Virus record (IMG/VR): IMGVR_UViG_3300008108_000023
Location: 64,001 to 128,000 of that record
Reading direction: 5' to 3' (one strand)
DNA: 64,000 bases
DNA from: a virus
Lineage: Duplodnaviria > Heunggongvirae > Uroviricota > Caudoviricetes
In this document: positions 581 through 58,724 of the stretch, piece by piece
How the letters are laid out: each line of letters begins with the position of its first letter
How positions within the stretch are numbered: position 1 is the first letter of the stretch
Program-made: the position numbers and the translations under genes
The notes under the pieces: generated by a model
Seen by the model: the letters and a program-made list of their open reading frames with translations, nothing else
What the model was told of the DNA's origin: nothing
Database searches by the model: none

Positions 581-589
581 GTTTTTTAT

Positions 590-1402: not shown

Positions 1403-1446
1403 GAATGTTCGGTTTGTGGTTCATGGGTAAAAATATGTAAAAAAAA

Positions 1447-1908: not shown

Positions 1909-1917
1909 TCAAATAAA

Positions 1918-2665: not shown

Positions 2666-2670
2666 ATGAT

Positions 2671-2677
2671 ATAAATA
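2671..2677 (-). promoter_or_regulatory. Recurrent TATTTAT motif
   Basis: AATATTTATA, 5 nt before the ATG at 2665. Confidence 0.55.
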
Positions 2678-2687
2678 TTAATAATAA

Positions 2688-3362: not shown

Positions 3363-3401
3363 GTGAATTATTTTTTTTAAATCTAAGAAAAAAAAGTGAT
3401 A

Positions 3402-12722: not shown

Positions 12723-12731
12723 GGTTATAAT

Positions 12732-12738
12732 ATAAATA
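12732..12738 (-). promoter_or_regulatory. Recurrent TATTTAT motif
   Basis: AGTATTTATA, 9 nt before the ATG at 12722. Confidence 0.6.
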
Positions 12739-12759: not shown

Positions 12760-15681
12760 TTAATTACATGTTCCAGTGCTTGTAAAAGTACCGTCACCAT
12801 CATTCGTAACTTGAGGTGTTGGTGTTAAATAACCACAGTATGTCTCAGTTGTACCATTCCCAACAGTAATAAATTGAAGGGTACCGGTACAGTCAGTATA
12901 ACTAAATGTGGTATGACCTCCTGTTCCTGTCGTTCCTCCATCGAATTCCCATAGTATGTCACATGGAGTAGCCGAACTGGTTGGGGTGAGTGTTGGTGTT
13001 GGGGTATTTGTTGGTGTTACTGTATTGGTAGAAGTCACGGTCGGTGTTGGTGTTACAGTTTCAGTTGGTGTAACTGTATTAGTAGGTGTTACAGTATTCG
13101 TTGGGGTTACGGTCGGTGTTGGTGTTACAGTTTCAGTTGGTGTAACTGTATTAGTAGGTGTTATTGTTGGTGTTGATGTGGGCGAACCACCGGGTGATGT
13201 TGTAATTGTTGGAGTTACTGTATTAGTAGGTGTTACAGTATTCGTTGGGGTTACGGTCGGTGTTGGTGTTAAAGTATTGGTGGGTGTGGGTGTTACAAGT
13301 GGTATGATTGAATCGGAGCAAATACCCACCCTAGAACCTGAGGCACCACCATTACCTGATATGGTCATCGAGATAAATGGTGTTGAATTTGTTATTATGA
13401 ATTTTCCACCACCATTGACAAAAAGTGGTGCGGTTGAGCCACCAATAATTGTGTTACCTGTTATTGTTACATAACAACTTAACGGTGAAGATATTGTGGG
13501 GGTACCTGTATTTGTTGTAAATGTGAAATCTTCATCACTAGTACCACCCATACCGGTTATAAAAACAACTAAATCATTTACTGGTGAACTAAAATTGTAT
13601 CTATATGAGAAAGGTCCTGAATTTCCTAAAAAGTTATGATAGTCGGTCATTACAATAGTGTCACCAACACAGGATGACGTGTATCCAGATGTATTTTCGG
13701 TAACACTACCACTATATGTTGATGTTATAGAAACACCGTTCACTGTCGAGGGGACATAAACGCTATCGTTACAAGTATACCCTGTTGATGGTGTACTACT
13801 AACAGTTGGTGTTGGGGTAAGTGTTGGTGTATTCGTAGGAGTCGCACTCTGAGTCGGTGTTACTGTTGGGGTGGGTGATGATATCGGTGTCGACGAACTA
13901 TCACAACAATCATCCAAATTAACTCTAAAAACTTGTTCACAACAACCTTCACAATCAATTCTAACATATATCTCCATTAATGTTGGGTCTATACCTGTAA
14001 TATCACAAATATCTCCTGTGGACATACTTGTACATGAAGTTATACCTGTTATGTTAGTTGAAGTTAATCCGGTATAGACCGTACAATTTGTATAATTAGA
14101 ACCGGAATTAAATGAAATCTTAACGCCTTTTGGGGTGACCAAATCGTTTACACAACCTGAAGGTGTAACAGTAGGTGTAGGGGTTTTTGTTGGGGTGTTG
14201 GTGGGTGTTGGGGTTGGCGAACCACCAGGTGTTGATGTAACTGATGGTGTAACGCTAGGTGTTAGAGTCGGTGTTGATGTTACTGTAAGTGTAACTGTCG
14301 GTGTTAAAGACGGAGTTGTTGAAGGTGTTTCACTTGGTGTATTAGAGGGTGTTGCCGATGGTGAAGTAGTTGGTGTGGGCGAACCTCCTGGTGATGAAGT
14401 AACTGTAGGTGTAACTGTATTTGTAGGGGTTGATGTATTGGTTGGAGTTACTGATGGTGAGGTAGTTGGTGTGGGTGTAGGTGAATCGCCTGGTGATGAA
14501 GTAACTGTAGGTGTAACTGTATTTGTGGGAGTTGATGTATTGGTTGGTGTAGGTGAACCGCCAGGTGAAGTTGTGACTGTAGGTGTAACTGTATTTGTAG
14601 GAGTTACTGTTGGTGTGACAGATACAGTTGAAACCGGCGAACTTGTTGGTGTTACTGTTGGTGTTACTGTTGGTGTGACAGATACAGTTGAAGCTGGTGA
14701 ACTTGTTGGTTCAGGAGTGACTGTAGGTGTGACTGTCGGAGTACTAGTTAATGTAGGTGTTGGGACCGGTAGTGAGTCACAATTTTGGTAGTCCTCACAA
14801 CCACCATTAGGATTCACAACTATATTAGTTGGGTCACTGAATGTAATTGTTTGATTGTCAAAACATACACATTGATAAACCGTAGCAAAAGGTGCGATGG
14901 TTCCGGAAGTTTGAAGCAAACCATAACAATCAGTATATGAATATGTAATTGTATTTCCATCTTCACTTATGATTTGTTTACACACACAATCCGTACATAT
15001 TGATGGTGTTGGTGTTGGGGTGGGGGATAGTGTTGGTGTTACAGTGTTAGTTGGTGTGGGTGTAACTGTTTTAGTAAGTGTTGGAGTTGGGGTTGGGGTT
15101 TCTGTGGGTGTTTCTGAAGGTGTTGGGGTTGGGGTTTCTGTGGGTGTTTCTGTTGGAGTTGGGGTTTCTGTGGGTGTTTCTGTTGGAGTTGGTGTCGGGG
15201 TTGGTGAAGGACATGATGGACACTCACCAGCTGTACAACTTGGTTGTGAAACCCACGTCCCAGTGTCGTCAACTGTTGCGGTTGAAGGGCCCGACGCAAC
15301 CGCAATATAACAATCCGTATTGTCAGTGTATACACTACCTACTATATAATTTAATCCACTTTGTACTTCATAAATAGTGCCTCCTTGTTCACAACATTTT
15401 TCAAAAAAAGTGGTTTCTTGACATTGTGAACCACTATCATTTGCAGTACTATTCGATGCGGTTAATGGAGAATCGTTTTTAAAATAATATAAACTAGGTA
15501 ATCCATTTTGTATGTCGGTACAAATAGTATAACTACCATTTGAAAAACTTGTTGTTGTAAGTACACCATTACAGTTGTAATAAGCAACATACACCTTACC
15601 ATTATTAACAGGGTTAGTGTTACCGGTGGCATTACCGGTATCCAATGAACTTATTGTGACGTTATATAATTGACAAGCCAT
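12760..15681 (-). CDS. Thr/Pro/Ser-repeat protein with Cys-rich modules (putative virion fibre/decoration)
   Basis: 973 aa. Four T/P tracts alternate with Cys-rich globular segments (FFEKCC...CY...C...C, YSYTDCYG, FSYTDCTG). Confidence 0.8.
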   Translation of the reverse strand: MACQLYNVTISSLDTGNATGNTNPVNNGKVYVAYYNCNGVLTTTSFSNGSYTICTDIQNGLPSLYYFKNDSPLTASNSTANDSGSQCQETTFFEKCCEQGGTIYEVQSGLNYIVGSVYTDNTDCYIAVASGPSTATVDDTGTWVSQPSCTAGECPSCPSPTPTPTPTETPTETPTPTETPTETPTPTPSETPTETPTPTPTLTKTVTPTPTNTVTPTLSPTPTPTPSICTDCVCKQIISEDGNTITYSYTDCYGLLQTSGTIAPFATVYQCVCFDNQTITFSDPTNIVVNPNGGCEDYQNCDSLPVPTPTLTSTPTVTPTVTPEPTSSPASTVSVTPTVTPTVTPTSSPVSTVSVTPTVTPTNTVTPTVTTSPGGSPTPTNTSTPTNTVTPTVTSSPGDSPTPTPTTSPSVTPTNTSTPTNTVTPTVTSSPGGSPTPTTSPSATPSNTPSETPSTTPSLTPTVTLTVTSTPTLTPSVTPSVTSTPGGSPTPTPTNTPTKTPTPTVTPSGCVNDLVTPKGVKISFNSGSNYTNCTVYTGLTSTNITGITSCTSMSTGDICDITGIDPTLMEIYVRIDCEGCCEQVFRVNLDDCCDSSSTPISSPTPTVTPTQSATPTNTPTLTPTPTVSSTPSTGYTCNDSVYVPSTVNGVSITSTYSGSVTENTSGYTSSCVGDTIVMTDYHNFLGNSGPFSYRYNFSSPVNDLVVFITGMGGTSDEDFTFTTNTGTPTISSPLSCYVTITGNTIIGGSTAPLFVNGGGKFIITNSTPFISMTISGNGGASGSRVGICSDSIIPLVTPTPTNTLTPTPTVTPTNTVTPTNTVTPTITTSPGGSPTSTPTITPTNTVTPTETVTPTPTVTPTNTVTPTNTVTPTETVTPTPTVTSTNTVTPTNTPTPTLTPTSSATPCDILWEFDGGTTGTGGHTTFSYTDCTGTLQFITVGNGTTETYCGYLTPTPQVTNDGDGTFTSTGTCN

Positions 15682-15684
15682 TTA

Positions 15685-16035
15685 TTACGTTATTTGAACA
15701 ACATTAACATTAAATGCACATGGGTAGTAACAATCACTACATCTTAAATCAACTAATGCTAATTGATAACCACCTTGCAATTTTGGTACCGATGATGGTA
15801 CAGGGTTTATGTGTCCGTCACAGTGTTCCACAAATACAAAAATTTGTGGTATGTTATCCAATAAACTTATATTAAACGTATATCCCGTTGATATTGGAAT
15901 TAAAACTTCAACCCCATTGATATAATTTGCATCATCAATATTATGTGTTAACCCTGTGTAGATATAGTACCCGTTACAAGGTGTTTGTCCTGAAAAATTT
16001 GATATTGTTACTGAGTATGTTACTAATGACGGCAT
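15685..16035 (-). CDS. Small hypothetical structural protein
   Basis: 116 aa, beta-rich with four Cys. Preceded by the TATTTAT motif. Confidence 0.7.
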   Translation of the reverse strand: MPSLVTYSVTISNFSGQTPCNGYYIYTGLTHNIDDANYINGVEVLIPISTGYTFNISLLDNIPQIFVFVEHCDGHINPVPSSVPKLQGGYQLALVDLRCSDCYYPCAFNVNVVQIT

Positions 16036-16041
16036 TATTTC

Positions 16042-16048
16042 ATAAATA
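16042..16048 (-). promoter_or_regulatory. Recurrent TATTTAT motif
   Basis: TATATTTATG, 6 nt before the ATG at 16035. Confidence 0.6.
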
Positions 16049-16060
16049 TAAATTCAATGT

Positions 16061-16909
16061 TTAATTACAATAATCGGGATTTAAATCACAATCTATAAAT
16101 GCAATACCACAATAGTTAGGGTCTGTTATGGTTCCACTTAAACCGGTTTGTGCAACTAAGTATTCACCAGCACTTGGATTGAGTGTAATATTTCCACTAT
16201 CCTGTGATGAACCAATGAATATTTGCCATTGTGGTGATGTGTATACCGCAATTACCACCCCTGAACTATTAACCTTATAAAAAGTAATTGGGATATTTGA
16301 AGTGGCGGTTGTTACACTACCTAAATTATCTTTTAGTGTCCAAGTAACTTCATATTGTATATTTTCATCTATCGTTTCAATACTGTACCATAAACAATAT
16401 GATGAAGGGGTGTTTTGTGTTGGAGTAGGAGTTGGAGTCTTGGTAACTGTTGGGGTTGGTGATAAACCAGGAGTTTTTGTTGGAGTAGGGGTTGGTGTAA
16501 TTGAAGCGTTCGGTGTCTTAGATGGTGTAGCGGTAACTGTTGGTGTTTTTGTAACTGTAGGTGTTGGGGTTGGGGTTCTTGTAACTGTAGGTGTTGGAGT
16601 TGGACTTATTGGTGGGTCACACTGTACCTCAACACTAAAACATAGTGTATCATAACAAGGAAACGCTTTACTATCGTGAGTGTAAATATTTTTAATTATA
16701 TAACGACCTGTAGTGTCGTCTGTCATTTTAACCCAATATTGAGTATTAAAACTTAAGTTTGTAATTGTAACAGCTGTAAGAGTTAAACCTGTTGCGTAAA
16801 GTGTAAATGTTGAATTGTTCGTTTCAGGATACGGGCTATCACCGGACTTGTATCTAATTGAGTACGTACCATCATTGATTATATTGTATAAACGAACATT
16901 TAATCCCAT
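16061..16909 (-). CDS. Two-domain protein with a central T/P linker
   Basis: Beta-rich N-terminal domain (FN3-like [14 protein letters not shown]), ~70-aa PTPTPT linker, beta-rich C-terminal domain. Confidence 0.75.
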
Positions 16910-16935
16910 TTTTTAATTATTGATTTCTATATTTG

Positions 16936-16942
16936 ATAAATA
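16936..16942 (-). promoter_or_regulatory. Recurrent TATTTAT motif
   Basis: TATATTTATC, 26 nt before the ATG at 16909. Confidence 0.55.
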
Positions 16943-16972
16943 TAAAAAATCCTATTTTATAGTAAAGTTATT

Positions 16973-19537: not shown

Positions 19538-19554
19538 TTATTACTATTCTTTCT

Positions 19555-19561
19555 ATAAATA
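19555..19561 (-). promoter_or_regulatory. Recurrent TATTTAT motif
   Basis: AGTATTTATA, 17 nt before the ATG at 19537. Confidence 0.6.
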
Positions 19562-19581
19562 CTTAAATCATTATTTTATCA

Positions 19582-22500
19582 TTAACATGCTTCTCCACAA
19601 AATGTGTTACAATAATCACCACAACCAGTACCGTATGTATATTGCGAAGTATATATTGGTGGTACGAAGTTTCCTCTAAACAATATAAACACATTTGTCA
19701 CTCTCATAAGACAAACGCTATAATTACCAGGGGCGTTATAACCTTGTGTTGTGAATGTACCATCACAACATTGGTATGCAAAGTATACTTGATTATCATC
19801 TGAGGCTGTTAAATCATTAATATCAACAAAAAAGTCTGTACACAAACAATCACCACAAGCACCATCATACGTTATCTCCCCACCATAAGGACCTAATACA
19901 CTTGGAATACTACATGAACATATCTCAATTGTACCACTTGCTGGGTACACATTTGGGTCAAGTATTTCTGTGGGTGTTCCTCCACCGCAACAAGTGGTAT
20001 AGTTAACTATATTACCAGGTCCTAATCCTGTAATAATATATGACTCACAAACACATGGTGGAGTTGGGGTTGGGGTCGGAGTTGGAGTTGGGGTTGGGGT
20101 TGATGACGGATTTGAAACCGGAGATGGTGTTGGAGTGTTTGTTGGAGTGTTTGTTGGAGTTACAGTCTTGGTTGGTGTATTTGTAGGAGTATTGGTTGGT
20201 GTTAAAGTTGGAGTAACTGTCCTTGTTGGAGTATTTGTAGGGGTAAAGGTTGGAGTTACAGTCTTGGTTGGAGTATTTGTAGGGGTAAAGGTTGGAGTTA
20301 CAGTCTTGGTTGGTGTATTTGTAGGGGTAAAGGTTGGAGTTACAGTCTTGGTTGGTGTATTTGTAGGAGTATTGGTTGGTGTTAAAGTTGGAGTAACTGT
20401 CCTTGTTGGTGTATTTGTCGGTGTTTTTGTTGGGGTTAAAGTTGGTGTAACTGTTGGTGTAACTGTTGGGGTTGGTGAAGGACAAGGGTGATAAGTTTCA
20501 CATTCAGTACATGTATTGTATGTACCATACGCAGTGATTGCGGAACCAGGTACTCCTGGTCCGACTGAGTTTGTAACAAAATAACAACAACCATTAATTG
20601 ATATATAACGGTTTACTAAAAGATTTGGGTTAAATCCATTTTGACAACCAAATTGAATTGTATATTGTCCTGTTGTACCACAACATCCACATCTTTGTAA
20701 ATCGAAAATCCAAGTGGCGCATGGGTTAGCTCCAATACATGTTTCACATGTATCAACACTAAATGATGATGGTGGATAATACCCGTCAACCCCACTAAAG
20801 TTTGGTGGTGAGTAGGTTTGACTATAACCTTCAACAAAATAACAACATCCATTTATAACAATAGTTTGACCTTGTGAAATACCGCTTTGAACATAGGTCA
20901 AATTAGTTGTTATACTTAAATAAGAAATAGTATTACCTAAAATACCACCATCACAACATGGTAATAAATAAACATAACCAACCTGTAAGGATGGTGATGG
21001 TGTTACTGTGCTTGTTGGTGTTAATGTAGGAGTTAAAGTTGGTGTAACTGTTTTTGTTGGTGTATTGGTAGGGGTTACGGATGGTGTTCTCGTAGGAGTA
21101 ACACTATTGGTTGGGGTGTTAGTCGGGGTTAAAGTTGGTGTAACTGTTCTTGTTGGTGTATTGGTAGGGGTTACCGTAGGGCTAACAGTGGCGGCTGGAG
21201 TTCTTGTTGGAGTAACAGTATTTGTTGGGGTATTGGTTGGTGTGAGAGTTGGTGTAACTGTTCTTGTTGGTGTATTGGTAGGGGTTACCGTATTCGTAGG
21301 TGTAACAGTTCTGGTTGGTGTTGGTGTCGGGGTTGGTGATGGACAAAAATTTAGAGTTTCTCCTAAACATTGTGCACAACTTGTCTGAACAGTAGTGTAA
21401 ATCGTACCTCCAGGTCCTACCTGTTGCACATACGTTGCACATAACTGAATGTCTTGTAAATAAAATACCGTACCTAACAATGTACCTAATGGTACTTGAC
21501 CATAATAAACATTGGTGTCACCAGGACAACATGATTCAAATCTAGCAGCAACATACTGAGGACTAGCCGTTGGGGTTACTGTTTTGGTTGGTGTCAATGT
21601 TGGTGTAACAGTATTTGTTGGAGTGTTAGTTGGTGTTACGGTTGGACTAACTGTGGCAGCCGGTGTTCTTGTTGGTGTAACAGTATTTGTTGGGGTATTT
21701 GTTGGAGTTACCGTAGGACTAACAGTGGCTGCTGGAGTTCTTGTTGGGGTATTGGTTGGGGTAACAGTATTTGTGGGGGTTACTGTGTTCGTTGGGGTAT
21801 TGGTAGGTGTATTTGTTGGTGTTAATGTTGGACTAACAGTAGCCGCTGGTGTTCTTGTTGGTGTAACAGTATTTGTTGGGGTATTTGTTGGAGTTACCGT
21901 ATTTGTTGGAGTATTAGTTGGGGTGTTAGTTGGTGTTACAGTGTTGGTTGGTGTATTAGTTGGAGTTAAAGTTGGTGTAACTGTTCTTGTTGGTGTATTG
22001 GTAGGTGTAACTGTATTCGTAGGGGTGACTGTATTAGTTGGAGTGTTGGTTGGAGTATTAGTTGGAGTTAAGGTTGGACTAACAGTGGCAGCTGGTGTTC
22101 TTGTCGGGGTTACGGTATTAGTAGGGGTATTGGTTGGAGTTACCGTATTTGTTGGAGTATTAGTTGGGGTGTTGGTTGGAGTAACAGTGTTGGTTGGGGT
22201 GTTAGTAGGGGTGTTGGTCGGTGTAACTGTATTTGTTGGAGTAACAGTATTAGTAGGTGTGTTTGTTGGTGTGTTAGTCGGTGTTAATGTTGGACTAACA
22301 GTAGCCGCTGGTGTTCTCGTAGGAGTTACAGTATTGGTAGGAGTATTGGTAGGAGTAACGGTGTTTGTTGGGGTGTTTGTAGGAGTATTGGTTGGTGTTA
22401 CAGTATTGGTTGGAGTATTGGTTGGTGTAAAAGTTGGTGTAACAGTTTTTGTTGGTGTATTAGTAGGAGTATTGGTCGGTGTGACAGTGTTGGTTGGTGT

Positions 22501-22803
22501 TACTGTATTTGTTGGAGTATTGGTTGGGGTATTGGTTGGTGTAAGGGTAGGACTAACAGTGGCTGCCGGAGTTCTTGTTGGAGTAACAGTATTGGTTGGG
22601 GTATTGGTTGGTGTAACAGTATTAGTCGGCGTATTGGTTGGAGTATTTGTTGGTGTGACTGTATTCGTTGGAGTGTTAGTAGGTGTAAAAGTTGGTGTGA
22701 CGGTTCTTGTTGGTGTATTGGTTGGTGTAACGGTATTGGTTGGGGTGTTTGTGGGTGTAAGGGTAGGACTAACAGTGGCGGCCGGAGTTCTTGTTGGAGT
22801 CAC
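19582..22803 (-). CDS. C-terminal part of the giant T/P-repeat protein (T/P tracts + Cys-rich modules)
   Basis: The track's start is a GTG (Val) inside the repeat with no intergenic space. The frame continues upstream in repeat register to the lesion at ~23085, so this is probably not an independent gene start. Confidence 0.75.
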
Positions 22804-25800
22804 TGTATTGGTCGGTGTGTTGGTGGGTGTGACTGTGTTAGTAGGTGTATTTGTAGGTGTATTAGTTGGTGTGACTGTATTTGTTGGAGTGTTTGTTGGG
22901 GTGTTTGTGGGTGTAACAGTATTAGTAGGAGTATTGGTTGGTGTTACAGTTTTGGTTGGAGTGTTAGTAGGTGTAACAGTATTAGTAGGTGTATTGGTAG
23001 GTGTATTGGTTGGTGTAACAGTATTCGTAGGAGTATTTGTTGGAGTATTTGTTGGACTAACAGTAGCTGCTGGTGTTCTTGTTTTACAGTGTTAGTCGGA
23101 GTGTTAGTTGGTGTATTCGTTGGTGTAACGGTATTTGTTGGGGTGTTAGTTGGTGTATTTGTTGGTGTTACTGTATTGGTAGGAGTATTTGTAGGACTCA
23201 ATGTAGGTGTAACTGTATTGGTCGGTGTTAAAGTTGGTGTAACTGTCTTTGTTGGTGTATTAGTAGGTGTCTGAGTTGGTGTAACTGTATTAGTCGGAGT
23301 ATTAGTAGGCGTAACAGTGTTTGTTGGAGTATTGGTTGGGGTATTTGTAGGAGTTACCGTATTGGTTGGGGTGTTTGTAGGAGTATTGGTAGGGGTGACA
23401 GTCTTGGTTGGAGTATTTGTGGGGGTAACAGTATTTGTTGGGGTAACCGTATTAGTTGGTGTGTTGGTTGGAGTATTTGTTGGGGTTAGAGTTGGTGTAA
23501 CAGTTTTTGTTGGTGTATTAGTTGGAGTAACGGTATTTGTTGGGGTATTGGTTGGGGTATTTGTAGGAGTTACCGTATTAGTCGGGGTATTAGTAGGCGT
23601 AACAGTGTTTGTTGGAGTATTGGTTGGGGTGTTTGTAGGAGTTAAGGTAGGTGTAACAGTCTTGGTTGGGGTGTTGGTTGGTGTAACTGTATTAGTAGGT
23701 GTGTTAGTTGGTGTAACTGTATTAGTAGGTGTATTTGTTGGAGTATTTGTTGGGGTAACAGTATTCGTAGGAGTATTGGTCGGTGTTAATGTAGGAGTAA
23801 CAGTTCTTGTTGGAGTATTTGTTGGGGTAACAGTATTCGTAGGAGTATTAGTAGGTGTTAATGTAGGTGTAACAGTCTTGGTCGGAGTGTTTGTAGGAGT
23901 ATTTGTTGGTGTAACAGTGTTTGTTGGTGTTACCGTGTTTGTAGGAGTATTGGTAGGAGTGTTCGTTGGAGTATTGGTTGGTGTTAATGTAGGTGTAACA
24001 GTATTAGTAGGTGTTAATGTAGGTGTAACAGTCTTGGTTGGGGTGTTTGTAGGAGTATTTGTTGGTGTAACGGTGTTCGTAGGGGTAACTGTAGGACTCA
24101 ATGTAGGGGTTACAGTATTGGTCGGAGTATTAGTAGGTGTTAATGTAGGTGTAACAGTCTTGGTTGGTGTATTGGTTGGGGTAACCGTGTTAGTTGGTGT
24201 GTTGGTGGGTGTTACTGTATTAGTAGGAGTAACTGTAGGACTCAATGTAGGAGTTACAGTCTTGGTTGGTGTATTAGTGGGTGTGTTTGTTGGTGTAACA
24301 GTATTGGTTGGGGTAACCGTGTTAGTTGGTGTGTTGGTTGGAGTATTTGTTGGGGTATTGGTTGGGGTGACTGTCTTAGTCGGTGTATTAGTTGGGGTTA
24401 CTGTATTTGTTGGTGTAACCGTATTTGTTGGTGTATTTGTGGGTGTATTGGTTGGAGTTAAAGTTGGTGTTACAGTTTTTGTTGGTGTGTTGGTCGGTGT
24501 AACTGTATTTGTTGGTGTATTTGTGGGTGTATTGGTCGGTGTAACTGTATTTGTTGGAGTATTTGTTGGGGTGTTAGTGGGTGTAACAGTATTAGTAGGA
24601 GTATTTGTGGGCGTATTGGTCGGTGTAACTGTATTTGTCGGAGTATTGGTTGGGGTATTTGTTGGTGTAACGGTGTTCGTAGGGGTAACTGTAGGACTCA
24701 ATGTAGGGGTTACAGTGTTTGTAGGAGTGTTTGTGGGAGTGTTGGTTGGGGTAACTGTATTAGTAGGAGTAACTGTAGGGGTGACAGTTTTAGTAGGTGT
24801 ATTAGTTGGAGTATTGGTAGGGGTTACAGTATTAGTAGGGGTATTTGTAGGAGTTAATGTAGGAGTTACAGTCTTGGTTGGGGTATTTGTTGGTGTAACG
24901 GTGTTCGTAGGGGTAACTGTAGGACTCAATGTGGGAGTCACCGTATTGGTCGGAGTATTGGTGGGGGTTACTGTATTAGTAGGAGTATTAGTAGGAGTAT
25001 TGGTTGGGGTTACCGTGTTGGTCGGAGTTAAAGTTGGTGTAACAGTTTTTGTTGGTGTATTGGTTGGAGTTACAGTGTTCGTAGGGGTATTTGTTGGTGT
25101 TAGAGTTGGTGTAACAGTTTTTGTTGGTGTATTAGTAGGAGTTACGGTGTTAGTTGGAGTGTTGGTAGGTGTGTTAGTTGGTGTTACAGTGTTGGTTGGT
25201 GTATTAGTAGGTGTCTGAGTTGGTGTAACTGTCTTGGTTGGGGTATTAGTTGGCGTTACAGTATTGGTTGGGGTTACCGTATTTGTAGGAGTTACGGTAT
25301 TGGTTGGAGTAACAGTATTAGTCGGCGTTACTGTGTTAGTTGGGGTGTTAGTGGGGGTAACAGTATTAGTAGGAGTAACGGAATTCGTGGGAGTGTTTGT
25401 AGGAGTGTTTGTTGGTGTTAATGTAGGTGTTACGGTTTTTGTTGGTGTATTGGTTGGGGTTACTGTATTTGTAGGAGTATTTGTAGGAGTTAAGGTAGGT
25501 GTAACAGTATTGGTTGGGGTATTGGTAGGTGTGTTGGTCGGGGTGACTGTGTTAGTTGGTGTAACTGTATTAGTTGGTGTATTCGTAGGGGTTTGAGTTG
25601 GTGTAACAGTATTGGTTGGGGTATTTGTTGGAGTTAAAGTTGGTGTGACAGTTTTTGTTGGTGTATTGGTAGGAGTTACGGTATTTGTAGGAGTATTAGT
25701 CGGTGTCTGAGTTGGTGTTACGGTGTTTGTTGGAGTATTGGTTGGAGTTAATGTAGGTGTTACAGTCTTGGTTGGTGTATTAGTTGGTGTTACAGTATTA

Positions 25801-28800
25801 GTAGGTGTAACAGTATTAGTAGGTGTAACAGTGTTTGTAGGTGTAACGGTATTGGTGGGAGTCACCGTATTAGTTGGTGTGTTAGTTGGGGTTACGGTGT
25901 TGGTTGGAGTAACGGTATTTGTTGGGGTGTTTGTAGGAGTGTTTGTTGGTGTTAATGTAGGTGTTACGGTTTTTGTTGGTGTATTGGTTGGTGTAACAGT
26001 ATTTGTTGGTGTGTTGGTGGGTGTGTTGGTGGGTGTTACAGTATTAGTTGGGGTATTAGTAGGACTCAATGTTGGGGTAACAGTATTCGTTGGTGTTACA
26101 GTATTGGTTGGAGTGTTTGTTGGGGTATTTGTTGGGGTTACGGTATTAGTAGGGGTATTGGTTGGAGTTAATGTAGGAGTAACAGTCTTGGTTGGTGTAT
26201 TAGTTGGCGTAACAGTGTTTGTTGGGGTGTTAGTTGGGGTATTTGTAGGGGTTACCGTATTGGTCGGAGTGTTGGTTGGTGTTAATGTAGGAGTAACAGT
26301 CTTGGTTGGAGTGTTTGTTGGGGTAACAGTATTGGTTGGAGTCACTGTATTAGTTGGTGTGTTGGTCGGTGTATTTGTTGGGGTTAAAGTTGGTGTGACA
26401 GTTTTTGTTGGTGTATTGGTTGGGGTTACTGTGTTAGTAGGAGTGTTTGTAGGTGTATTAGTAGGGGTATTAGTATTAGTCGGGGTATTGGTCGGTGTAA
26501 CTGTATTCGTTGGAGTAACGGTAGGAGTTAATGTAGGAGTAACAGTCTTGGTTGGTGTATTAGTAGGTGTGTTAGTAGGGGTTACCGTATTGGTTGGGGT
26601 GTTAGTCGGGGTAACTGTGTTAGTTGGTGTGTTAGTTGGTGTGTTGGTCGGAGTTACCGTATTTGTTGGAGTATTTGTAGGGGTTAAGGTAGGCGTAACA
26701 GTTCTTGTTGGAGTATTGGTCGGTGTAACTGTATTCGTTGGAGTTACAGTGTTAGTGGGGGTTACGGTATTGGTCGGCGTTACAGTGTTAGTCGGTGTTA
26801 CCGTATTAGTTGGAGTATTTGTTGGCGTAACAGTGTTTGTTGGAGTTACAGTGTTTGTGGGGGTATTGGTTGGAGTATTGGTGGGAGTCTGAGTTGGGGT
26901 GACTGTCTTAGTTGGGGTATTGGTCGGGGTAACTGTGTTGGTTGGAGTAACGGTATTTGTTGGGGTATTGGTCGGGGTATTGGTTGGAGTTAAAGTTGGC
27001 GTAACAGTGTTTGTTGGTGTATTGGTAGGTGTTACAGTATTAGTTGGGGTATTGGTTGGAGTTAAAGTTGGTGTAACAGTTTTTGTTGGTGTATTAGTTG
27101 GCGTTACAGTATTAGTTGGTGTGTTAGTTGGTGTGTTTGTTGGGGTTACCGTATTGGTCGGAGTTACCGTAGGACTCAATGTAGGAGTTACAGTATTAGT
27201 TGGTGTGTTGGTTGGTGTGACTGTATTCGTTGGAGTGTTAGTAGGTGTCTGAGTTGGGGTAACAGTATTTGTTGGAGTATTGGTAGGAGTATTGGTAGGG
27301 GTTACAGTATTGGTAGGAGTATTGGTAGGGGTTACAGTATTGGTAGGAGTATTCGTTGGGGTTAGAGTTGGTGTAACAGTTTTGGTAGGAGTATTAGTAG
27401 GGGTTACAGTATTTGTAGGAGTTACCGTAGGACTCAATGTGGGAGTCACCGTATTAGTTGGTGTATTGGTTGGGGTTACGGTGTTGGTTGGAGTGTTTGT
27501 AGGTGTATTAGTTGGAGTAACAGTATTTGTAGGTGTATTAGTCGGGGTATTGGTTGGTGTTACGGTGTTGGTTGGGGTTAAAGTTGGTGTGACAGTTTTT
27601 GTTGGTGTATTGGTTGGCGTAACAGTGTTTGTCGGAGTATTAGTTGGGGTGTTGGTTGGTGTATTAGTTGGAGTTACAGTGTTGGTTGGAGTGTTAGTTG
27701 GTGTTACGGTATTGGTTGGGGTTACTGTGTTTGTAGGAGTATTGGTCGGTGTATTCGTTGGGGTTAGAGTTGGTGTAACAGTTTTGGTAGGAGTATTAGT
27801 AGGAGTTATAGTATTCGTTGGTGTGTTGGTCGGTGTAACAGTATTAGTTGGGGTGTTGGTTGGGGTGTTGGTTGGAGTAACAGTATTAGTTGGAGTATTA
27901 GTTGGGGTGTTGGTTGGAGTAACAGTGTTTGTTGGGGTTACCGTAGGGCTCAATGTGGGAGTTACAGTTTTAGTAGGGGTGTTTGTTGGAGTTACGGTGT
28001 TGGTTGGGGTATTGGTTGGTGTGTTAGTTGGTGTAACTGTATTAGTGGGAGTCACTGTAGGGCTCAATGTTGGAGTTACAGTGTTGGTTGGGGTGTTAGT
28101 TGGTGTATTGGTTGGTGTAACTGTATTCGTTGGAGTGTTTGTAGGAGTGTTGGTTGGGGTTACAGTATTAGTTGGTGTGTTGGTTGGAGTTAATGTAGGT
28201 GTAACGGTTCTTGTGGGGGTGTTGGTAGGGGTTACGGTATTAGTTGGAGTGTTTGTTGGGGTATTTGTTGGGGTTACGGTATTAGTTGGAGTGTTTGTTG
28301 GGGTATTTGTTGGGGTTACGGTATTAGTAGGGGTATTGGTTGGGGTATTTGTTGGGGTTACGGTATTAGTAGGGGTATTGGTTGGAGTTAATGTAGGTGT
28401 AACGGTTCTTGTGGGGGTGCTGGTAGGGGTTACGGTGTTAGTTGGAGTGTTGGTAGGTGTGTTAGTTGGCGTAACGGTGTTAGTTGGAGTCACAGTCGGA
28501 CTCAATGTAGGTGTTACTGTATTTGTTGGGGTGTTGGTAGGGGTATTTGTAGGTGTTACGGTGTTGGTAGGTGTAACTGTTGGACTCAATGTAGGAGTCA
28601 CAGTATTTGTTGGTGTATTTGTAGGTGTGTTAGTTGGGGTAACGGTATTAGTTGGAGTGTTGGTTGGTGTATTTGTTGGTGTTACTGTGTTAGTAGGGGT
28701 ATTTGTGGGAGTATTTGTAGGTGTTACGGTGTTGGTAGGTGTAACTGTTGGACTCAATGTGGGAGTCACAGTTTTAGTAGGAGTATTTGTAGGTGTTACG

Positions 28801-31800
28801 GTGTTGGTAGGTGTGTTTGTTGGGGTATTGGTTGGAGTTACCGTATTCGTCGGAGTATTAGTAGGGGTGTTAGTTGGAGTTACAGTGTTTGTTGGTGTGT
28901 TTGTAGGGGTATTGGTAGGTGTTACTGTGTTAGTAGGAGTATTTGTAGGAGTATTGGTTGGTGTTACGGTATTTGTAGGAGTTACAGTTGGTGTTAATGT
29001 AGGAGTCACCGTGTTTGTTGGGGTATTGGTGGGAGTATTTGTAGGGGTTACCGTATTTGTCGGTGTATTGGTTGGTGTTAAAGTAGGTGTAACCGTTCTT
29101 GTTGGAGTGTTAGTTGGTGTAACCGTATTTGTAGGAGTATTAGTAGGGGTGTTGGTAGGGGTTACAGTATTCGTAGGGGTATTGGTTGGTGTATTCGTGG
29201 GTGTGACAGTATTAGTTGGTGTTACGGTTGGACTCAGTGTAGGGGTTACTGTATTGGTTGGAGTGTTAGTTGGGGTATTTGTAGGTGTAACTGTATTTGT
29301 TGGGGTGTTTGTAGGTGTATTAGTTGGTGTAACTGTATTAGTTGGTGTATTCGTAGGGGTTTGAGTTGGTGTAACAGTATTTGTAGGAGTCACAGTCGGA
29401 CTCAATGTGGGAGTCACGGTCTTAGTCGGTGTGTTAGTAGGGGTAACTGTGTTCGTAGGAGTTACCGTAGGACTCAATGTAGGGGTGACAGTGTTGGTTG
29501 GAGTATTGGTTGGTGTGTTGGTTGGTGTTACGGTGTTTGTAGGAGTTACTGTATTAGTAGGAGTGTTCGTAGGGGTATTGGTAGGGGTTACTGTGTTAGT
29601 TGGAGTGTTAGTAGGTGTATTGGTAGGAGTAACTGTATTGGTTGGTGTATTTGTGGGTGTAACAGTGTTAGTTGGTGTGTTAGTTGGTGTGTTGGTAGGA
29701 GTTACGGTGTTAGTTGGAGTATTTGTAGGTGTCTGAGTTGGTGTAACTGTATTCGTAGGGGTTACAGTCGGACTCAGTGTAGGTGTTACTGTGTTAGTCG
29801 GGGTAACTGTAGGTGTATTTGTTGGAGTTACAGTGTTGGTTGGGGTGTTGGTTGGAGTTACGGTGTTCGTTGGAGTATTGGTTGGTGTATTAGTTGGGGT
29901 TACTGTATTAGTTGGAGTATTGGTTGGGGTATTGGTTGGAGTTACAGTCTTGGTTGGTGTGTTGGTTGGTGTTACGGTGTTTGTTGGAGTATTGGTTGGA
30001 GTGTTTGTGGGGGTGTTGGTTGGTGTTACGGTGTTTGTTGGGGTGACTGTATTGGTTGGAGTGTTTGTTGGGGTGTTGGTGGGAGTATTTGTAGGGGTTA
30101 CCGTATTTGTCGGTGTATTGGTTGGTGTTAAAGTAGGTGTAACCGTTCTTGTTGGAGTTACAGTCGGACTCAATGTTGGAGTTACTGTATTGGTTGGTGT
30201 TAGTGTCGGGCTTAATGTTGGTGTAACAGTACTAGTTGGGGTATTGGTTGGGGTGTTGGTTGGAGTTACCGTATTGGTTGGTGTATTCGTCGGTGTATTT
30301 GTAGGTGTAACAGTATTCGTAGGTGTTACAGTTGGAGTATTGGTTGGGGTTACTGTGTTAGTTGGAGTATTGGTGGGGGTATTGGTTGGAGTAACAGTAT
30401 TTGTTGGTGTCACAGTCGGACTCAATGTTGGTGTAACAGTTTTTGTTGGGGTATTTGTCGGTGTCTGAGTTGGTGTTACGGTATTGGTTGGCGTATTGGT
30501 AGGAGTATTGGTTGGCGTATTTGTTGGAGTTACGGTATTAGTTGGTGTGACTGTATTGGTTGGGGTGTTAGTCGGCGTGTTCGTAGGGGTGTTGGTTGGT
30601 GTTACCGTATTTGTTGGTGTATTAGTAGGTGTGTTAGTAGGTGTTACTGTATTTGTAGGCGTGTTCGTGGGAGTCTGAGTTGGTGTTACAGTGTTAGTAG
30701 GAGTGTTAGTTGGCGTGTTAGTGGGTGTAACAGTATTAGTAGGAGTCACCGTTGGACTCAATGTAGGTGTAACAGTATTGGTTGGTGTGTTGGTCGGAGT
30801 GTTGGTAGGAGTTACAGTATTAGTAGGAGTCACCGTTGGACTCAATGTAGGTGTAACTGTATTTGTTGGGGTATTTGTTGGGGTATTGGTAGGAGTTACT
30901 GTATTAGTCGGAGTGTTGGTCGGGGTGTTGGTTGGAGTAACAGTGTTGGTGGGAGTATTGGTTGGAGTGTTAGTTGGTGTATTTGTTGGGGTTACGGTGT
31001 TGGTTGGAGATACCGTATTTGTAGGAGTATTGGTTGGAGTGTTAGTTGGGGTTAGTGTTGGGGTTACGGTGTTTGTTGGGGTATTGGTAGGTGTATTGGT
31101 TGGTGTAACGGTATTTGTAGGAGTAACAGTGTTGGTTGGAGTATTGGTAGGACTTAATGTTGGCGTATTAGTTGGGGTTACGGTGCTGGTTGGAGTCACT
31201 GTTGGACTCAATGTAGGTGTAACTGTATTTGTTGGTGTGTTGGTAGGAGTGTTTGTAGGAGTCACAGTATTAGTAGGAGTCACAGTTGGACTTAATGTGG
31301 GAGTTACTGTATTAGTTGGAGTGTTGGTAGGTGTGTTAGTTGGGGTTACTGTATTTGTCGGGGTATTGGTTGGGGTATTTGTTGGTGTAACGGTGTTGGT
31401 CGGAGTGTTTGTGGGAGTATTTGTAGGAGTTACTGTGTTCGTAGGAGTTACTGTAGGACTCAATGTTGGTGTTACTGTATTTGTTGGGGTGTTAGTAGGA
31501 GTGTTTGTTGGAGTCACCGTGTTTGTTGGGGTATTGGTGGGAGTATTTGTTGGTGTAACAGTATTTGTTGGGGTGTTAGTTGGGGTGTTGGTAGGAGTTA
31601 CCGTATTGGTTGGTGTGTTAGTTGGGGTGTTGGTAGGAGTTACCGTATTGGTTGGTGTGTTAGTAGGAGTGTTTGTTGGTGTAACAGTATTGGTTGGTGT
31701 GTTAGTAGGAGTGTTTGTTGGTGTAACAGTATTGGTAGGAGTTACAGTTGGGGTGTTGGTTGGAGTTACAGTATTAGTAGGCGTATTGGTAGGAGTATTA

Positions 31801-34800
31801 GTTGGAGTTACTGTATTTGTAGAAGTATTGGTAGGAGTATTGGTAGGGGTGACAGTATTGGTGGGCGTATTGGTAGGAGTATTGGTTGGGGTGACTGTAT
31901 TTGTTGGAGTATTTGTTGGGGTGTTAGTTGGAGTTACTGTATTTGTAGGAGTATTGGTAGGAGTATTGGTAGGGGTGACAGTATTGGTGGGGGTGTTTGT
32001 AGGAGTATTGGTAGGGGTGACAGTATTGGTTGGAGTATTAGTTGGGGTGACTGTATTTGTTGGAGTATTTGTTGGGGTGTTGGTAGGGGTGTTGGTAGGA
32101 GTTACAGTATTGGTTGGAGTAACTGTATTGGTTGGAGTGTTTGTCGGGGTATTTGTAGGTGTCAGTGTCGGTGTTACGGTATTTGTTGGAGTATTAGTAG
32201 GAGTGTTAGTTGGTGTAACCGTATTTGTTGGTGTATTTGTGGGTGTATTGGTAGGAGTAACTGTATTGGTAGCCGTATTGGTAGGAGTGTTGGTTGGTGT
32301 ATTAGTTGGTGTGACTGTATTGGTCGGAGTTACCGTCGGTGTATTTGTTGGGGTTACGGTATTGGTAGGGGTTACTGTTGGTGTATTCGTAGGCGTGTTT
32401 GTTGGGGTTACGGTATTTGTTGGAGTATTAGTGGGGGTATTCGTAGGTGTATTGGTTGGTGTTACGGTGTTAGTTGGGGTATTTGTAGGGGTTTGAGTTG
32501 GTGTAACGGTATTGGTTGGAGTCACTGTTGGACTCAATGTTGGCGTTACCGTATTGGTAGGAGTATTAGTTGGCGTATTGGTAGGAGTAACTGTGTTGGT
32601 TGGGGTGTTGGTAGGAGTGTTAGTTGGTGTTACAGTATTAGTTGGTGTGTTAGTTGGTGTGTTTGTTGGTGTTACGGTGTTCGTAGGGGTGTTAGTAGGT
32701 GTCAGTGTTGGGGATACCGTATTGGTAGGAGTGTTAGTTGGTGTATTTGTAGGGGTTACCGTATTGGTAGGAGTATTAGTTGGTGTATTTGTAGGAGTAG
32801 CAGTATTAGTAGGGGTATTTGTTGGAGTATTGGTCGGTGTTACAGTGTTTGTTGGAGTGTTGGTTGGTGTTACAGTGTTTGTTGGGGTGTTTGTCGGAGT
32901 GTTGGTTGGGGTATTCGTTGGTGTTACAGTATTTGTAGGGGTTACGGTGTTGGTTGGAGTATTGGTGGGGCTTAATGTTGGGGTATTTGTAGGGGTTACG
33001 GTGTTGGTTGGGGTCGCTGTTGGAGTCAATGTAGGTGTAACTGTATTGGTTGGGGTATTGGTAGGAGTATTGGTTGGGGTAACAGTATTGGTAGGAGTAA
33101 CTGTTGGACTCAATGTAGGAGTAACTGTATTGGTAGGAGTGTTTGTTGGTGTATTGGTTGGTGTTACAGTATTAGTTGGAGTATTTGTTGGAGTTAAAGT
33201 TGGTGTAACAGTTTTTGTTGGTGTATTAGTTGGGGTGTTAGTAGGAGTTACTGTATTGGTTGGTGTGTTTGTGGGAGTATTGGTTAATGTAACGGATGGT
33301 GTTACAGTGTTGGTTGGTGTTACCGTTGGAGTATTGGTGGGTGTTGGGGTGCTCGTTGGAGTTGGTGAGGGTAACATTGTATAATCAATGTCACAAGAAG
33401 GTGCTGGTGTTGGTGAAACCGTCACAGTTACACTTGGTGTATTTGTTGGAGTTACAGTATTGGTTGGAGTTACAGTATTTGTCGGGGTGTTTGTGGGGGT
33501 AACTGTATTGGTTGGAGTCACTGTTGGACTCAATGTTGGTGTTACAGTGTTAGTAGGAGTGTTGGTCGGCGTGTTAGTTGGAGTATTGGTTGGTGTTACG
33601 GTGTTAGTTGGTGTTACCGTAGGACTCAATGTAGGAGTCACAGTATTGGTAGGTGTATTGGTTGGAGTATTGGTTGGTGTTACGGTGTTAGTTGGTGTTA
33701 CCGTAGGACTCAATGTAGGAGTCACAGTATTCGTTGGTGTGTTTGTAGGTGTATTAGTCGGAGTTACGGTGTTGGTTGGAGTTACGGTATTTGTGGGAGT
33801 GTTTGTAGGAGTGTTGGTAGGAGTGTTTGTTGGAGTTACGGTGTTGGTTGGGGTATTGGTTGGGGTATTGGTTGGTGTAACGGTATTTGTAGGAGTATTT
33901 GTAGGTGTCTGAGTTGGAGTTACTGTATTCGTCGGTGTGTTTGTTGGGGTGTTGGTAGGAGTTACGGTATTGGTAGGACTTAATGTTGGAGTGTTAGTTG
34001 GAGTATTTGTTGGAGTTACTGTGTTGGTTGGAGTATTCGTAGGTGTAACCGTATTTGTTGGTGTATTAGTTGGGGTGTTTGTAGGTGTATTAGTTGGTGT
34101 CACAGTTTCTGTTGGAGTCACTGTAACAGTATTGGTTGGTGTGACTGTATTGGTAGGGGTTACGGTGTTGGTTGGTGTAAGTGTTGGTGTTTCTGTGGGA
34201 GTATTTGTTGGTGTGTTGGTGGGGGTATTTGTTGGTGTTTCGGTTGGTGTATTTGTAGGTGTATTAGTTGGAGCTACCGTATTTGTTGGAGTTACAGTTG
34301 GAGTGTTAGTTGGGGTAACCGTTGGTGTAACAGTATTGGTAGGAGTATTGGTTGGGGTTTGAGTTGGTGTAACGGTTGCAGTATTTGTTGGTGTTAGGGT
34401 AGGTGTTTCAGTTTGTGTTACAGTGGGTGTATTGGTTGGAGTTACAGTATTGGTTGGAGTTACAGTTGAGGTATTAGTCGGAGTGTTAGTTGGTGTTATG
34501 GTGTTGGTTGGGGTATTGGTAGGTGTTTCGGTAGGGGTAACGGTTGGACTCAGTGTTGGTGTTACTGTGTTAGTCGGAGTATTAGTTGGGGTGTTGGTTG
34601 GTGTTTCGGTAGGGGTAACGGTTAGGGTTACGGTGTTGGTTGGAGTATTGGTTGGTGTTTCGGTTGGTGTTTCGGTTGGTGTATTAGTTGGGGTAACAGT
34701 ATTGGTTGGAGTTACAGTTGGGGTAACAGTTGGGGTAACAGTTGGAGTTACGGTGTTGGTTGGGGTATTGGTTGGTGTTTCGGTTGGTGTTTCGGTTGGT

Positions 34801-35500
34801 GTATTAGTTGGGGTAACAGTATTTGTTGGGGTGTTAGTGGGTGTTTCAGTCGGTGTATTAGTTGGGGTATTGGTTGGTGTTTCGGTAGGGGTTACTGTAT
34901 GAGTTGGTGTATTGGTAGGTGTTTCGGTAGGGGTTACCGTATTTGTTGGAGTTACAGTTGGAGTTTCGGTAGGGGTAACTGTATTTGTTGGGGTGTTGGT
35001 AGGTGTTTCAGTTGGTGTATTGGTTGGGGTTACCGTATTTGTTGGGGTTACAGTTGGAGTTTCGGTCGGAGTAACAGTTGGTGTCTCGGTTGGTGTAACT
35101 GTATTCGTAGGAGTTACAGTAGGTGTGTTGGCTGGTGATTCGGTTGGAGTTACTGTGTTAGTTGGGGTAACTGTAGGAGTTTCAGTTGGGGTAACCGTTG
35201 GGGTATTTGTTGGGGTATTGGTTGGAGTTACTGTGTTAGTTGGAGTAACTGTAGGAGTTTCAGTTGGGGTAACTGTAGGCTCGTTTGTTGGAGTATTAGT
35301 CGGAGTTACGGTATTCGTAGGAGTATTTGTTGGAGTGATAGTATTGGTTGGGGTAACAGTAGGTGTTTTTGTAACCGTAGGTGTAACAGTAGGGGTTTTG
35401 GTAACTGTTGGGGTTGGGGTATTTGAAGTAAAGGTTGTTGGTGTTGGTGTTAATGATGGTGTAAGTGTTGGTGAAGGTGTAGGTGAAGGTGTAGGGCAAG
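21560..35500 (-). repeat. ~14-kb coding tandem repeat of 12-nt (4-codon) units [16 protein letters not shown], synonymously diversified
   Basis: The plus strand is almost continuously gt(a/g)tt(a/g/t)gt(t/a/c)gg(a/t/g)-type units. One short non-repeat island ([11 protein letters not shown]) lies at ~33370-33405. Confidence 0.97.
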
Positions 35501-35690
35501 GAATCTCAGCCACACAAGTTTTATCAAGTGACGGAAAATAAACTGAGTAAGTACCTAAGTAGTAGTTTGTGTCGTAATAATATGGCATCACGACAGTACC
35601 TAAATTCAAGGTACCGCCAGTACAAGGATAAAATGTGATAACACCAATTTCACCATCAAAATTACCTGTGTTTATTTTTATTAATGCCAT
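22944..35690 (-). CDS. Giant mucin-like Thr/Pro/Asn/Val repeat protein (4,248 aa as called; frameshifted at ~23085)
   Basis: ATG at 35690, ~65-aa globular N-domain ([14 protein letters not shown]...CVAEIPC), then >4,100 residues of TPTN/TVTP repeats. The last ~46 aa (KQEHQQLLL...) are out-of-frame repeat. Confidence 0.85.
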
Positions 35691-40942: not shown

Positions 40943-40953
40943 GTTTTTTTATA

Positions 40954-40960
40954 ATAAATA
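40954..40960 (-). promoter_or_regulatory. Recurrent TATTTAT motif
   Basis: CATATTTATT, 11 nt before the ATG at 40942. Confidence 0.6.
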
Positions 40961-58653: not shown

Positions 58654-58678
58654 TGTATATTTTCTATTGTTTTTAATT

Positions 58679-58724
58679 AAAAAAGAAGAACTTGGACACA
58701 ATGTCTAAGTATGTGTCCAAGTTC
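58679..58724 (-). terminator. Rho-independent terminator after the SSB gene
   Basis: Perfect 13-bp stem GAACTTGGACACA / TGTGTCCAAGTTC (58688-58700, 58712-58724), 11-nt loop, then TTCTTTTTT on the minus strand. Confidence 0.82.

Follow-up and report, generated by a model that had tools for sequence, protein, structure and literature searches.

A hypervariable cassette of putative fiber genes with mucin-like Thr/Pro stalks in an uncultured jumbo myophage

Introduction

The fiber and receptor-binding cassettes of myophages, such as those for the long and short fibers of T-even phages and the fiber genes of P2 and Mu, combine a conserved N-terminal attachment part with an exchangeable C-terminal binding part. 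Spacers of low complexity are known from other settings: the PTS domains of mucins, bacterial Pro/Thr linkers such as the PT box of Cellulomonas cellulases, and the Ser-Asp-repeat adhesins of staphylococci, which are glycosylated by SdgA and SdgB. The fibrils of Mimivirus represent a virion glycosylation system, and in 2023 Freeman et al. reportedly described virion glycosylation in mycobacteriophages Che8, Corndog, and Myrna, where the sugars are said to be accepted by a short extension at the C-terminus of capsid or tail-tube subunits. Here we describe a cluster of genes whose products carry small globular domains on Thr/Pro-rich (T/P) tracts, found in a 64,000-nucleotide stretch (the window) that comprises bases 64001-128000 of the 155-kb IMG/VR viral contig IMGVR_UViG_3300008108_000023, estimated to be 50% complete. 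We propose, with a probability of roughly 0.6, that this block is a hypervariable cassette of late, virion-attached fiber or adhesin genes.

Among large phages, additional surface structures have been reported as capsid fibers in Tenacibaculum phages PTm1 and PTm5 and as tail hairs and whiskers in Erwinia phage Y3 and Pectobacterium phage CBB (PMC13282480, PMC5259590).

Results

A hypervariable island between two conserved genes

The cluster and its two flank genes are all encoded on the minus strand. In order of transcription (aa, amino acids; ORF, open reading frame) they are as follows:

35781-40025, minus strand: 1,414-aa upstream flank gene, conserved
22944-35690, minus strand: giant gene, proximal part, a 4,248-aa ORF
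19582-23091, minus strand: giant gene, distal part, an overlapping open frame of 1,169 codons
16973-19537, minus strand: 854-aa gene, an ORF with domains J, O, K, L, and P and T/P tracts of 23-98 residues
16061-16909, minus strand: 282-aa gene, an ORF with domain E (97 aa), a T/P tract of 74 residues, and an orphan head of 112 aa
15685-16035, minus strand: 116-aa gene, an ORF with domain F alone
12760-15681, minus strand: 973-aa gene, an ORF with domain G, an orphan Cys domain, domain H, and two more orphan pieces, and T/P tracts of 15-209 residues
10572-12722, minus strand: 716-aa downstream flank gene, conserved, function unknown

Window-based segmentation of the proteins into T/P tracts and globular pieces supported the architecture that had been proposed from the DNA letters alone (the original prediction), namely co-oriented genes of 973, 116, 282, and 854 aa and globular domains joined by T/P tracts in every product except the 116-aa protein. 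Four of the five cluster proteins consist of globular pieces of 45-311 aa, many of them Cys rich, together with T/P tracts of 15-4,142 residues, and the 116-aa protein has no such tract. The predicted linker range of ~15 to ~4,600 residues was measured as 15 to 4,648, the upper value being the sum over both frames of the giant gene (4,142 + 506).

The 716-aa gene occurs in six viral contigs at 96%, 93%, 85%, 74%, 69%, and 52% identity, and four of these relatives (G001, G002, G003, and G005) keep both flanks in collinear order. As had been predicted, the order and number of modules vary between these flanks, and the block, which ranges from 3 to 23 kb, differs in length, gene number, and domain order. 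The DNA between the flank genes measures as follows:

This phage: 23 kb
G001: 13 kb
G002: 15.8 kb
G005: 22.6 kb
G003 (complete, 335 kb): 3 kb

Clustered by BLASTP, the globular pieces fell into 17 families, which switch genes among relatives, and at all junctions of shuffled families there is a T/P tract, as the original prediction had also anticipated. The 854-aa protein, for example, reads J-O-K-L-P here and J-O-K followed by an unrelated tail in G001. Within G002, K starts one gene, L-P follows an E-type N-terminal domain in a second (E-L-P), and a third gene, adjoining the 716-aa gene, carries J and then G-G-Q-H-B-B. Domain F stands alone in three genomes and is joined to a head as F-T/P-B in G005, where head B ends three different genes (72-75% identity to one another). 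Domain H is 84% identical in G001 and lies there inside a 405-aa gene, and domain E is 67-82% identical in G001, G002, and G005, with a different C-terminal part of the 282-aa gene in each.

Rates of divergence differ sharply along the block. Compared with G001, the flanks are 96-97% identical, domains D, E, and F 82-85%, domains J, K, and H 77-84%, and domain O 49%, and the giant heads I and B only 46% and 42%; compared with G002, heads I, N, and B are 46%, 52%, and 32% identical. Across relatives, D, E, and F retain 55-89% identity and heads are either 32-52% identical or replaced, a pattern of conserved N-terminal and variable C-terminal parts that is typical of tail fibers. At the DNA level, both flanks are collinear with G001 (87-89% identity). 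Upstream, this collinearity ends ~1 kb into the giant stalk; downstream, it starts again within the last bases of the 973-aa gene, shortly ahead of the stop codon, and between these ends there are just patches of 70-86% identity. In a much closer strain, whose 1,414-aa protein is 99% identical, the intergenic region and domain D are at 98% nucleotide identity, and from giant residue 137 onward there are dozens of in-frame indels, with ~36-40 gap openings in 2 kb of stalk. Judged by the identities of flanks, N-terminal domains, and heads, the cluster is a hypervariable island in which N-terminal domains are conserved and heads change quickly. These alignments show a block that evolves by in-frame gain and loss of repeat units in its stalks and by whole-domain moves between genes with T/P tracts at each junction, and whose heads diverge or are replaced much faster than the flanks.

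A giant stalk and a broken reading frame

The giant gene had been predicted as a single gene of ~5,370 aa; it is in reality a 4,248-aa ORF and an overlapping frame that are joined only by a -1 shift. The first frame runs for 4,248 codons from 35690 and then becomes nonsense, and the repeat goes on one base back, from 23091 to 19582.

23079-23091 (shift at about 23082-23085), minus strand: frame break, a -1 shift at GTA-AAA-C with a run of four A (A4)

With the frames combined, the product comprises the N-terminal domain D (61 aa), a stalk of 4,648 residues, and three heads, of which the distal part supplies the last 506 stalk residues and heads I (68 aa), N (164 aa), and B (153 aa), with T/P tracts of 121 and 151 residues between these heads. 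Thr alternates with other residues (Thr-X) throughout the proximal stalk (4,142 residues; 49% Thr, 21% Pro, 16% Asn, 9% Val), and over the whole stalk it stands at essentially alternate positions (48% Thr, 21% Pro, 16% Asn, 9% Val). Units of 14 residues predominate, and the stalk has the long tandem repeats rich in Thr/Ser and Pro by which mucins are recognized. Assuming 0.25-0.31 nm per residue for an extended or polyproline II-like chain (our own assumption), the stalk would measure about 1.2-1.4 μm if fully extended. An ice-binding or β-helical TxT surface was considered and rejected, as a proline at approximately every fourth residue argues against regular sheets.

The repeats in stalk DNA are 64-70% identical, with abundant exact repeats of 30-99 nucleotides (nt) and a longest exact repeat of 80-99 nt. 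Thr codons ACT/ACA/ACC are used at 0.32/0.33/0.29 in the stalk compared to 0.20/0.56/0.16 in the neighboring gene. This flattened codon use and the length of the open frame point to selection on the stalk at the protein level and speak against a recent expansion by slippage.

Domain D followed by a T/P tract was found at 17 IMG/VR loci in a DNA-level scan, with most of these contigs ending within the stalk; over 13 loci the domain is 80-98% identical. A word-indexed protein search with the same domain among candidates of 2,336-7,434 aa returned zero matches. For one 87-kb contig (IMGVR_UViG_3300008267_000295), the stored locus ends 720 bases into the giant gene while the contig itself goes on, perhaps through a data limit or masked sequence.

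How the frame break is to be read bears on whether the exact length and the 5,370-aa product are real. The -1 shift is equivalent to a missing CACC, and it coincides exactly with a switch between two repeat dialects: the unit RTPAATVSP has nine copies, all downstream of the break, and zero upstream. Relatives encode their giants as single, uninterrupted ORFs (2,940 aa in G001, 2,737 aa in G002, and 4,989 aa in G005). The dialect switch, these single ORFs, and the many contigs that stop inside the stalk together point to a short-read mis-join of the 16-kb repeat or to a recent 4-nt or 1-nt deletion at a recombination joint, and the chance that the giant is in part an artifact or a dead gene in this record is, in our estimate, not far short of even. 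Against a mis-join, exact repeats are shorter than 100 nt and could be spanned by paired 150-nt reads, and three contigs assembled independently carry intact ORFs of 2,737-4,989 aa, which shows that giants of such size are real for the clade; both halves are, moreover, still open here (4,248 + 1,169 codons). A programmed -1 frameshift, yielding a headless 4,248-aa stalk and more rarely a full protein with heads, would draw on the perfect re-pairing of tRNA-Lys one base back on A-AAA and on a shifted frame that continues the repeat without a stop. We regard it as very improbable: the site (GTA-AAA-C) does not form the conserved X-XXY-YYZ slippery heptamer that characterizes such frameshifts, it is not conserved in relatives with their single ORFs, and the ORF contains comparable runs at other places (nine A4 and 14 longer A runs).

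Orphan heads and a Cys-rich module

Searches of the cluster proteins and their single domains against Pfam, PHROGs, and NCBIfam gave nothing above cut-offs. Of the heads suggested by the original prediction, the β-propeller is upheld by structure: domain L (311 aa, residues 433-743 of the 854-aa protein) was recognized as a seven-bladed propeller by Atlas structure search, with template modeling (TM) scores by query of 0.70-0.78 over 274-299 residues against ten propeller clusters of Lactonase/YncE/YVTN/NHL type, so that the fold of the Atlas model extends over the whole domain. Domain L has no Pfam or PDB-sequence match. The fibronectin type III (FN3)-like head is only hinted at; domain E gave matches to Pur_ac_phosph_N (E = 0.003, 18 bits compared with a cut-off of 30) and DUF5979 that were below threshold, and it may be at best weakly FN3-like.

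AlphaFold2 modeling of the C-terminal 474 residues of the giant reached a mean predicted local distance difference test (pLDDT) score of 65. Head B was modeled at pLDDT 80-95 as an all-β structure of two small β domains; in VIA comparisons of the C-terminal model, the best Z score was 4.4, which is noise (fucose lectin, C2 domains, and viral turret or penton jelly rolls). A profile of the first half of head B retrieved B-type heads alone and no other "YTDC" pieces.

A module of ~65 aa recurs among the heads, with the pattern CC-C-CxxC (a hydrophobic strand, C or CC, Y/F, G, (N/D)G-x-C, GP, C-x-x-C). Head B has 14 Cys, head N and domain J each contain two Cys modules, and domain G contains one. 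The claim that domain types are common to several genes holds in part: this motif occurs six times in three genes here, and more often in relatives, with a Cys spacing that aligns over all 18 copies, but BLASTP within the genome found no paralogous globular domains at E < 0.08. Profiles built by leaving one family out recovered J at up to 19 bits and Q at 18 bits, well above decoys (≤7 bits), with G, N, and M marginal and I not recovered; homology among the copies is only partly supported. Among 1.84 billion proteins, a profile of all copies matched 47 representatives, approximately half of which have T/P/S tracts.

A further stalk-and-head protein, the sixth, lies outside the window, directly upstream of the tail sheath gene:

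G000:C1:143218-145752, minus strand: 844-aa stalk protein, a 104-residue T/P tract followed by a DUF5122 β-propeller (Pfam, 5.6e-82)

By BLASTP, domain L shows no similarity to this DUF5122 propeller.

The flank genes and a candidate anchor

The 1,414-aa protein is 97% identical in G001, 80% in G002, 68% in G005, and 55% in G003 and belongs to a family of at least 455 homologues. Among the 120 homologues listed, 82 have a T/P tract after approximately residue 1,400, and several of these stalks end in DUF285, BspA-type leucine-rich repeat (LRR; LRR_5), or discoidin (F5/8-type-C) heads. In G003, the first 1,031 residues of the homologue are fused to T/P tracts and small domains. Here, the protein stops at residue 1,414, and the giant begins 90 bases on, opening with domain D ahead of the stalk. 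The fusions form a Rosetta-stone pattern, which suggests the 1,414-aa protein as the point of attachment for the stalk. Complex prediction of the C-terminal 375 residues of that protein with domain D scored 0.00, which is evidence neither way.

The 1,414-aa protein has no family or fold match above noise. Its residues 1-1040, modeled with AlphaFold2 from 43 sequences (mean pLDDT 62), had no convincing Foldseek match in PDB or AFDB clusters, and VIA-align, for which the stated noise level is Z 7-8, gave a best Z of 6.2, with several baseplate chains of contractile systems at Z 5-6, all below noise. The original prediction called the 716-aa gene "tail-collar-fiber-like," a label that is unsupported because the protein had zero matches in Pfam, PHROG, NCBIfam, PDB sequences, or GenBank phages. 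Neither flank protein had a match among PDB sequences or by tblastn in 50,697 GenBank phage records, and the upstream flank region had none by megablast against GenBank phages.

Genomic setting and a promoter-like octamer

The tail sheath and baseplate hub genes are found further along the contig, and the best cultured match of the sheath is that of Microcystis phage Mel-JY01. As this match reaches only 33% identity, the source phage is, by its sheath sequence, a distant, uncultured jumbo myophage. Recognizable genes near the cluster include, besides baseplate genes, those for ribonucleotide reductase, a DnaB-type helicase, primase, a RuvC-like resolvase, a UvsX-like recombinase, and exonucleases. 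Outside the cluster, the G+C content of the window is 31%; over the cluster it rises to 40-44%, and the GC skew rises to +0.73, because the minus strand carries the Thr/Pro codons.

The upstream (5') end of the co-oriented run that holds the cluster is formed by two baseplate wedge genes, followed directly by a large Cys-containing one:

50739-51191, minus strand: gp25-like baseplate wedge gene (PF04965, 1e-14)
48905-50737, minus strand: gp6/J-like baseplate wedge gene (PHROG 6, 1.7e-22)
44728-48852, minus strand: 1,374-aa protein containing 26 Cys and, at residues 606-625, a short T/P linker; its gene directly follows the gp6-like one

The cluster thus occupies the usual site of myophage tail fibers, downstream of the wedge genes and co-oriented with them, and like tail fibers it is encoded in a tail and baseplate gene run, with the 844-aa protein beside the sheath as a second instance. 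The baseplate flank of the original prediction is correct as to the gp25-like and gp6/J-like genes upstream, but five more large genes of unknown family lie between them and the cluster. The 1,374-aa protein matches no family; it is possibly a wedge component like gp7 or else part of the baseplate periphery.

On the coding (minus) strand there are 34 copies of the octamer TATTTAT[AT], 16 of them no more than 40 nt upstream of ORF starts, including those of the tail sheath, gp25-like, 1,374-aa, 305-aa, 854-aa, and 716-aa genes. It lies 3-38 nt before many ORF starts, further examples being 40953-40960 and the copies upstream of 48852 and 51191. At the cluster, the exact copies are as follows:

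19554-19561, minus strand: promoter-like motif TATTTATA, 16 nt upstream of the 854-aa gene
12731-12738, minus strand: motif TATTTATA, upstream of the 716-aa gene

Most genes had been credited with a promoter-like motif of their own. Within 40 nt upstream, an exact octamer is confined to the 854-aa gene of the cluster and, likewise, the 716-aa flank gene; the 116-aa, 282-aa, and giant genes have looser variants ahead of them, and the 973-aa gene has none. The octamer resembles the T4 late promoter TATAAATA and is a candidate late-promoter element.

Candidate glycosylation genes and recombination genes

We hypothesize that the T/P stalks are O-glycosylated. Among the genes of the fragment are those for three GT2-type glycosyltransferases, a UDP-GlcNAc 2-epimerase, and an NAD-dependent epimerase/dehydratase. 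Candidate initiating enzymes of the GT60 type (PF11397, GlcNAc-transferase-like) score above cut-off twice in G001 and once in the complete G003, where they lead runs of ~7-9 co-oriented genes (G001:C1:151266-160811; G003:C1:70561-76946) away from the stalk genes. By offset from shared genes, the counterparts of the G001 copies would fall past the end of this contig.

The phage carries its own homologous-recombination kit:

57655-58701, minus strand: UvsX-like recombinase
56601-57623, minus strand: exonuclease
58732-59589: SSB-like gene, next to the recombinase and exonuclease genes

Together with the abundant exact T/P repeats of 30-99 nt, the UvsX-like recombinase and exonucleases would make linker-mediated exchange feasible, the data giving the positions of junctions and not their origin. 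The T/P DNA itself is a putative recombination substrate, as the original prediction suggested, with repeats that are only about 65% identical. A diversity-generating retroelement was also considered, and no reverse transcriptase was noticed among the annotated ORFs, though no search was aimed at one.

Discussion

We infer attachment to the virion from the position of the genes, the octamer they have in common with tail genes, the conserved N-terminal domains, and the fusions in the 1,414-aa family. In the proposed arrangement, the proteins would dock on the particle through a conserved domain at the N-terminus (D, E, F, or J), the docking site being probably the conserved 1,414-aa protein or its vicinity. 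The T/P tract, with its alternating Thr-X, would act as an extended, probably O-glycosylated, mucin-like spacer, and one to five small heads, among them the ~65-aa CC-C-CxxC modules, a β-sandwich, and the seven-bladed propeller, would bind to structures on the surface of the host or of particles. By eye only (no predictor was used), none of the N-termini of the cluster proteins looks like a signal peptide, which would fit assembly in the cytoplasm.

Several observations weigh against this reading. By sequence, the globular domains and flanks match no known family of tail fibers, baseplate periphery, or decoration, and fold searches gave only rows below noise (best Z of 6.2 for the 1,414-aa protein and 4.4 for the giant heads). 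The giant heads may not be made at all in this record, because the frameshift breaks their gene. PF11397 (GT60-type) is absent from this 50%-complete fragment, and the octamer is AT rich in a genome of 69% A+T, leaving its promoter role putative.

Some of the same evidence could be read as placing the proteins outside the particle, either made late and freed at lysis or active inside the cell; as soluble mucin-like polymers, they might serve as decoys, aggregation or biofilm-matrix agents, or shields for progeny. Such a role would accord with their lack of homology to any virion protein family, and a thread of more than 1 μm is hard to square with an orderly assembly of virions; disulfides in the Cys-rich heads (14-15 Cys per 150-160 residues) would, furthermore, form only outside the cell. 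We nevertheless consider it quite unlikely, given that conserved N-termini with variable C-termini are the pattern of attached fibers, that most relatives fuse the stalk covalently to the conserved 1,400-aa protein of the baseplate-to-fiber gene run, and that another stalk protein adjoins the tail sheath gene. If the proteins are on the virion, they might still not be determinants of host range and instead form a general adhesive or anti-fouling decoration (compare Ig-domain decoration), binding mucus, particles, or capsule nonspecifically or making up a glycosylated brush. The mucin-like composition of the stalk, the lectin-type heads (discoidin, LRR) on homologous stalks of relatives, and the glycan-building genes of the genome would all suit a coat of this kind, which we think unlikely on two grounds: heads change far faster than flanks (42-46% compared to 96-97% identity), as expected when tracking a changing host surface, and the site is that of tail fibers and not of head genes.

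Returning to a cassette of virion-attached fibers or adhesins, we speculate that this freshwater clade of jumbo phages builds micrometer-long, self-glycosylated, mucin-like tethers anchored at the baseplate periphery, with exchangeable lectin-like heads that include the previously undescribed CC-C-CxxC module. Such "fishing lines" could widen the capture radius in dilute water, with the low-complexity linkers as joints for head swaps between genes and phages. We offer this picture tentatively, as possible rather than probable. If the stalks are on the particle, they would be by far the longest phage appendages from a single gene and would alter estimates of encounter and adsorption rates for large aquatic phages. 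The cluster also provides a natural case of linker-mediated domain shuffling, with identical families in different genes of sister phages that are always bounded by a T/P tract. Alternate-Thr stalks together with phage glycosyltransferases suggest mucin-type protein glycosylation outside eukaryotes, and the heads may be a source of small binding domains, predicted to be disulfide rich, that have no known relatives.

Compared with known systems, the cluster resembles myophage fiber cassettes in that its genes follow the baseplate wedge, N-termini are conserved as heads diverge or are replaced, and close relatives are mosaic. It differs from them in having no sequence or fold similarity to known fiber families, in shafts made of low-complexity Thr-X tracts of up to ~4,650 residues in place of coiled-coil or β-helical rods, and in carrying several heads per chain, with no chaperone gene recognized. 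Our literature search found no direct precedent for phage fibers of Thr/Pro repeats. The jumbo myophages PTm1/PTm5, Y3, and CBB, one of them on a Bacteroidota host, bear extra flexible fibers in micrographs; no homology was found between the cluster and these decorated phages, its flanks being without a tblastn match in the GenBank phage records, and in the literature searched the genes behind jumbo-phage hairs were not found described as Thr/Pro proteins.

As in mucins, PT linkers, and Ser-Asp adhesins, long Thr/Pro-rich tandem repeats would serve as extended spacers between small binding domains, and the repeat number varies quickly; candidate initiating glycosyltransferases are encoded in the same phage clade. 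Unlike in these systems, the tracts are phage encoded, have no signal peptide discernible by eye, alternate Thr strictly, and are glycosylated by prediction only; they exceed bacterial linkers in length by one to two orders of magnitude. As in the glycosylation systems of mycobacteriophages and Mimivirus, the virus encodes glycosyltransferases together with surface proteins (here putative ones) rich in acceptor residues, and the glycosylation predicted here would, unlike that of the mycobacteriophages, fall on a separate stalk of micrometer scale. The cassette, with its putative virion role, presumed binding function, and predicted glycosylation, would thus combine a mucin-like and unprecedented shaft with orphan heads.

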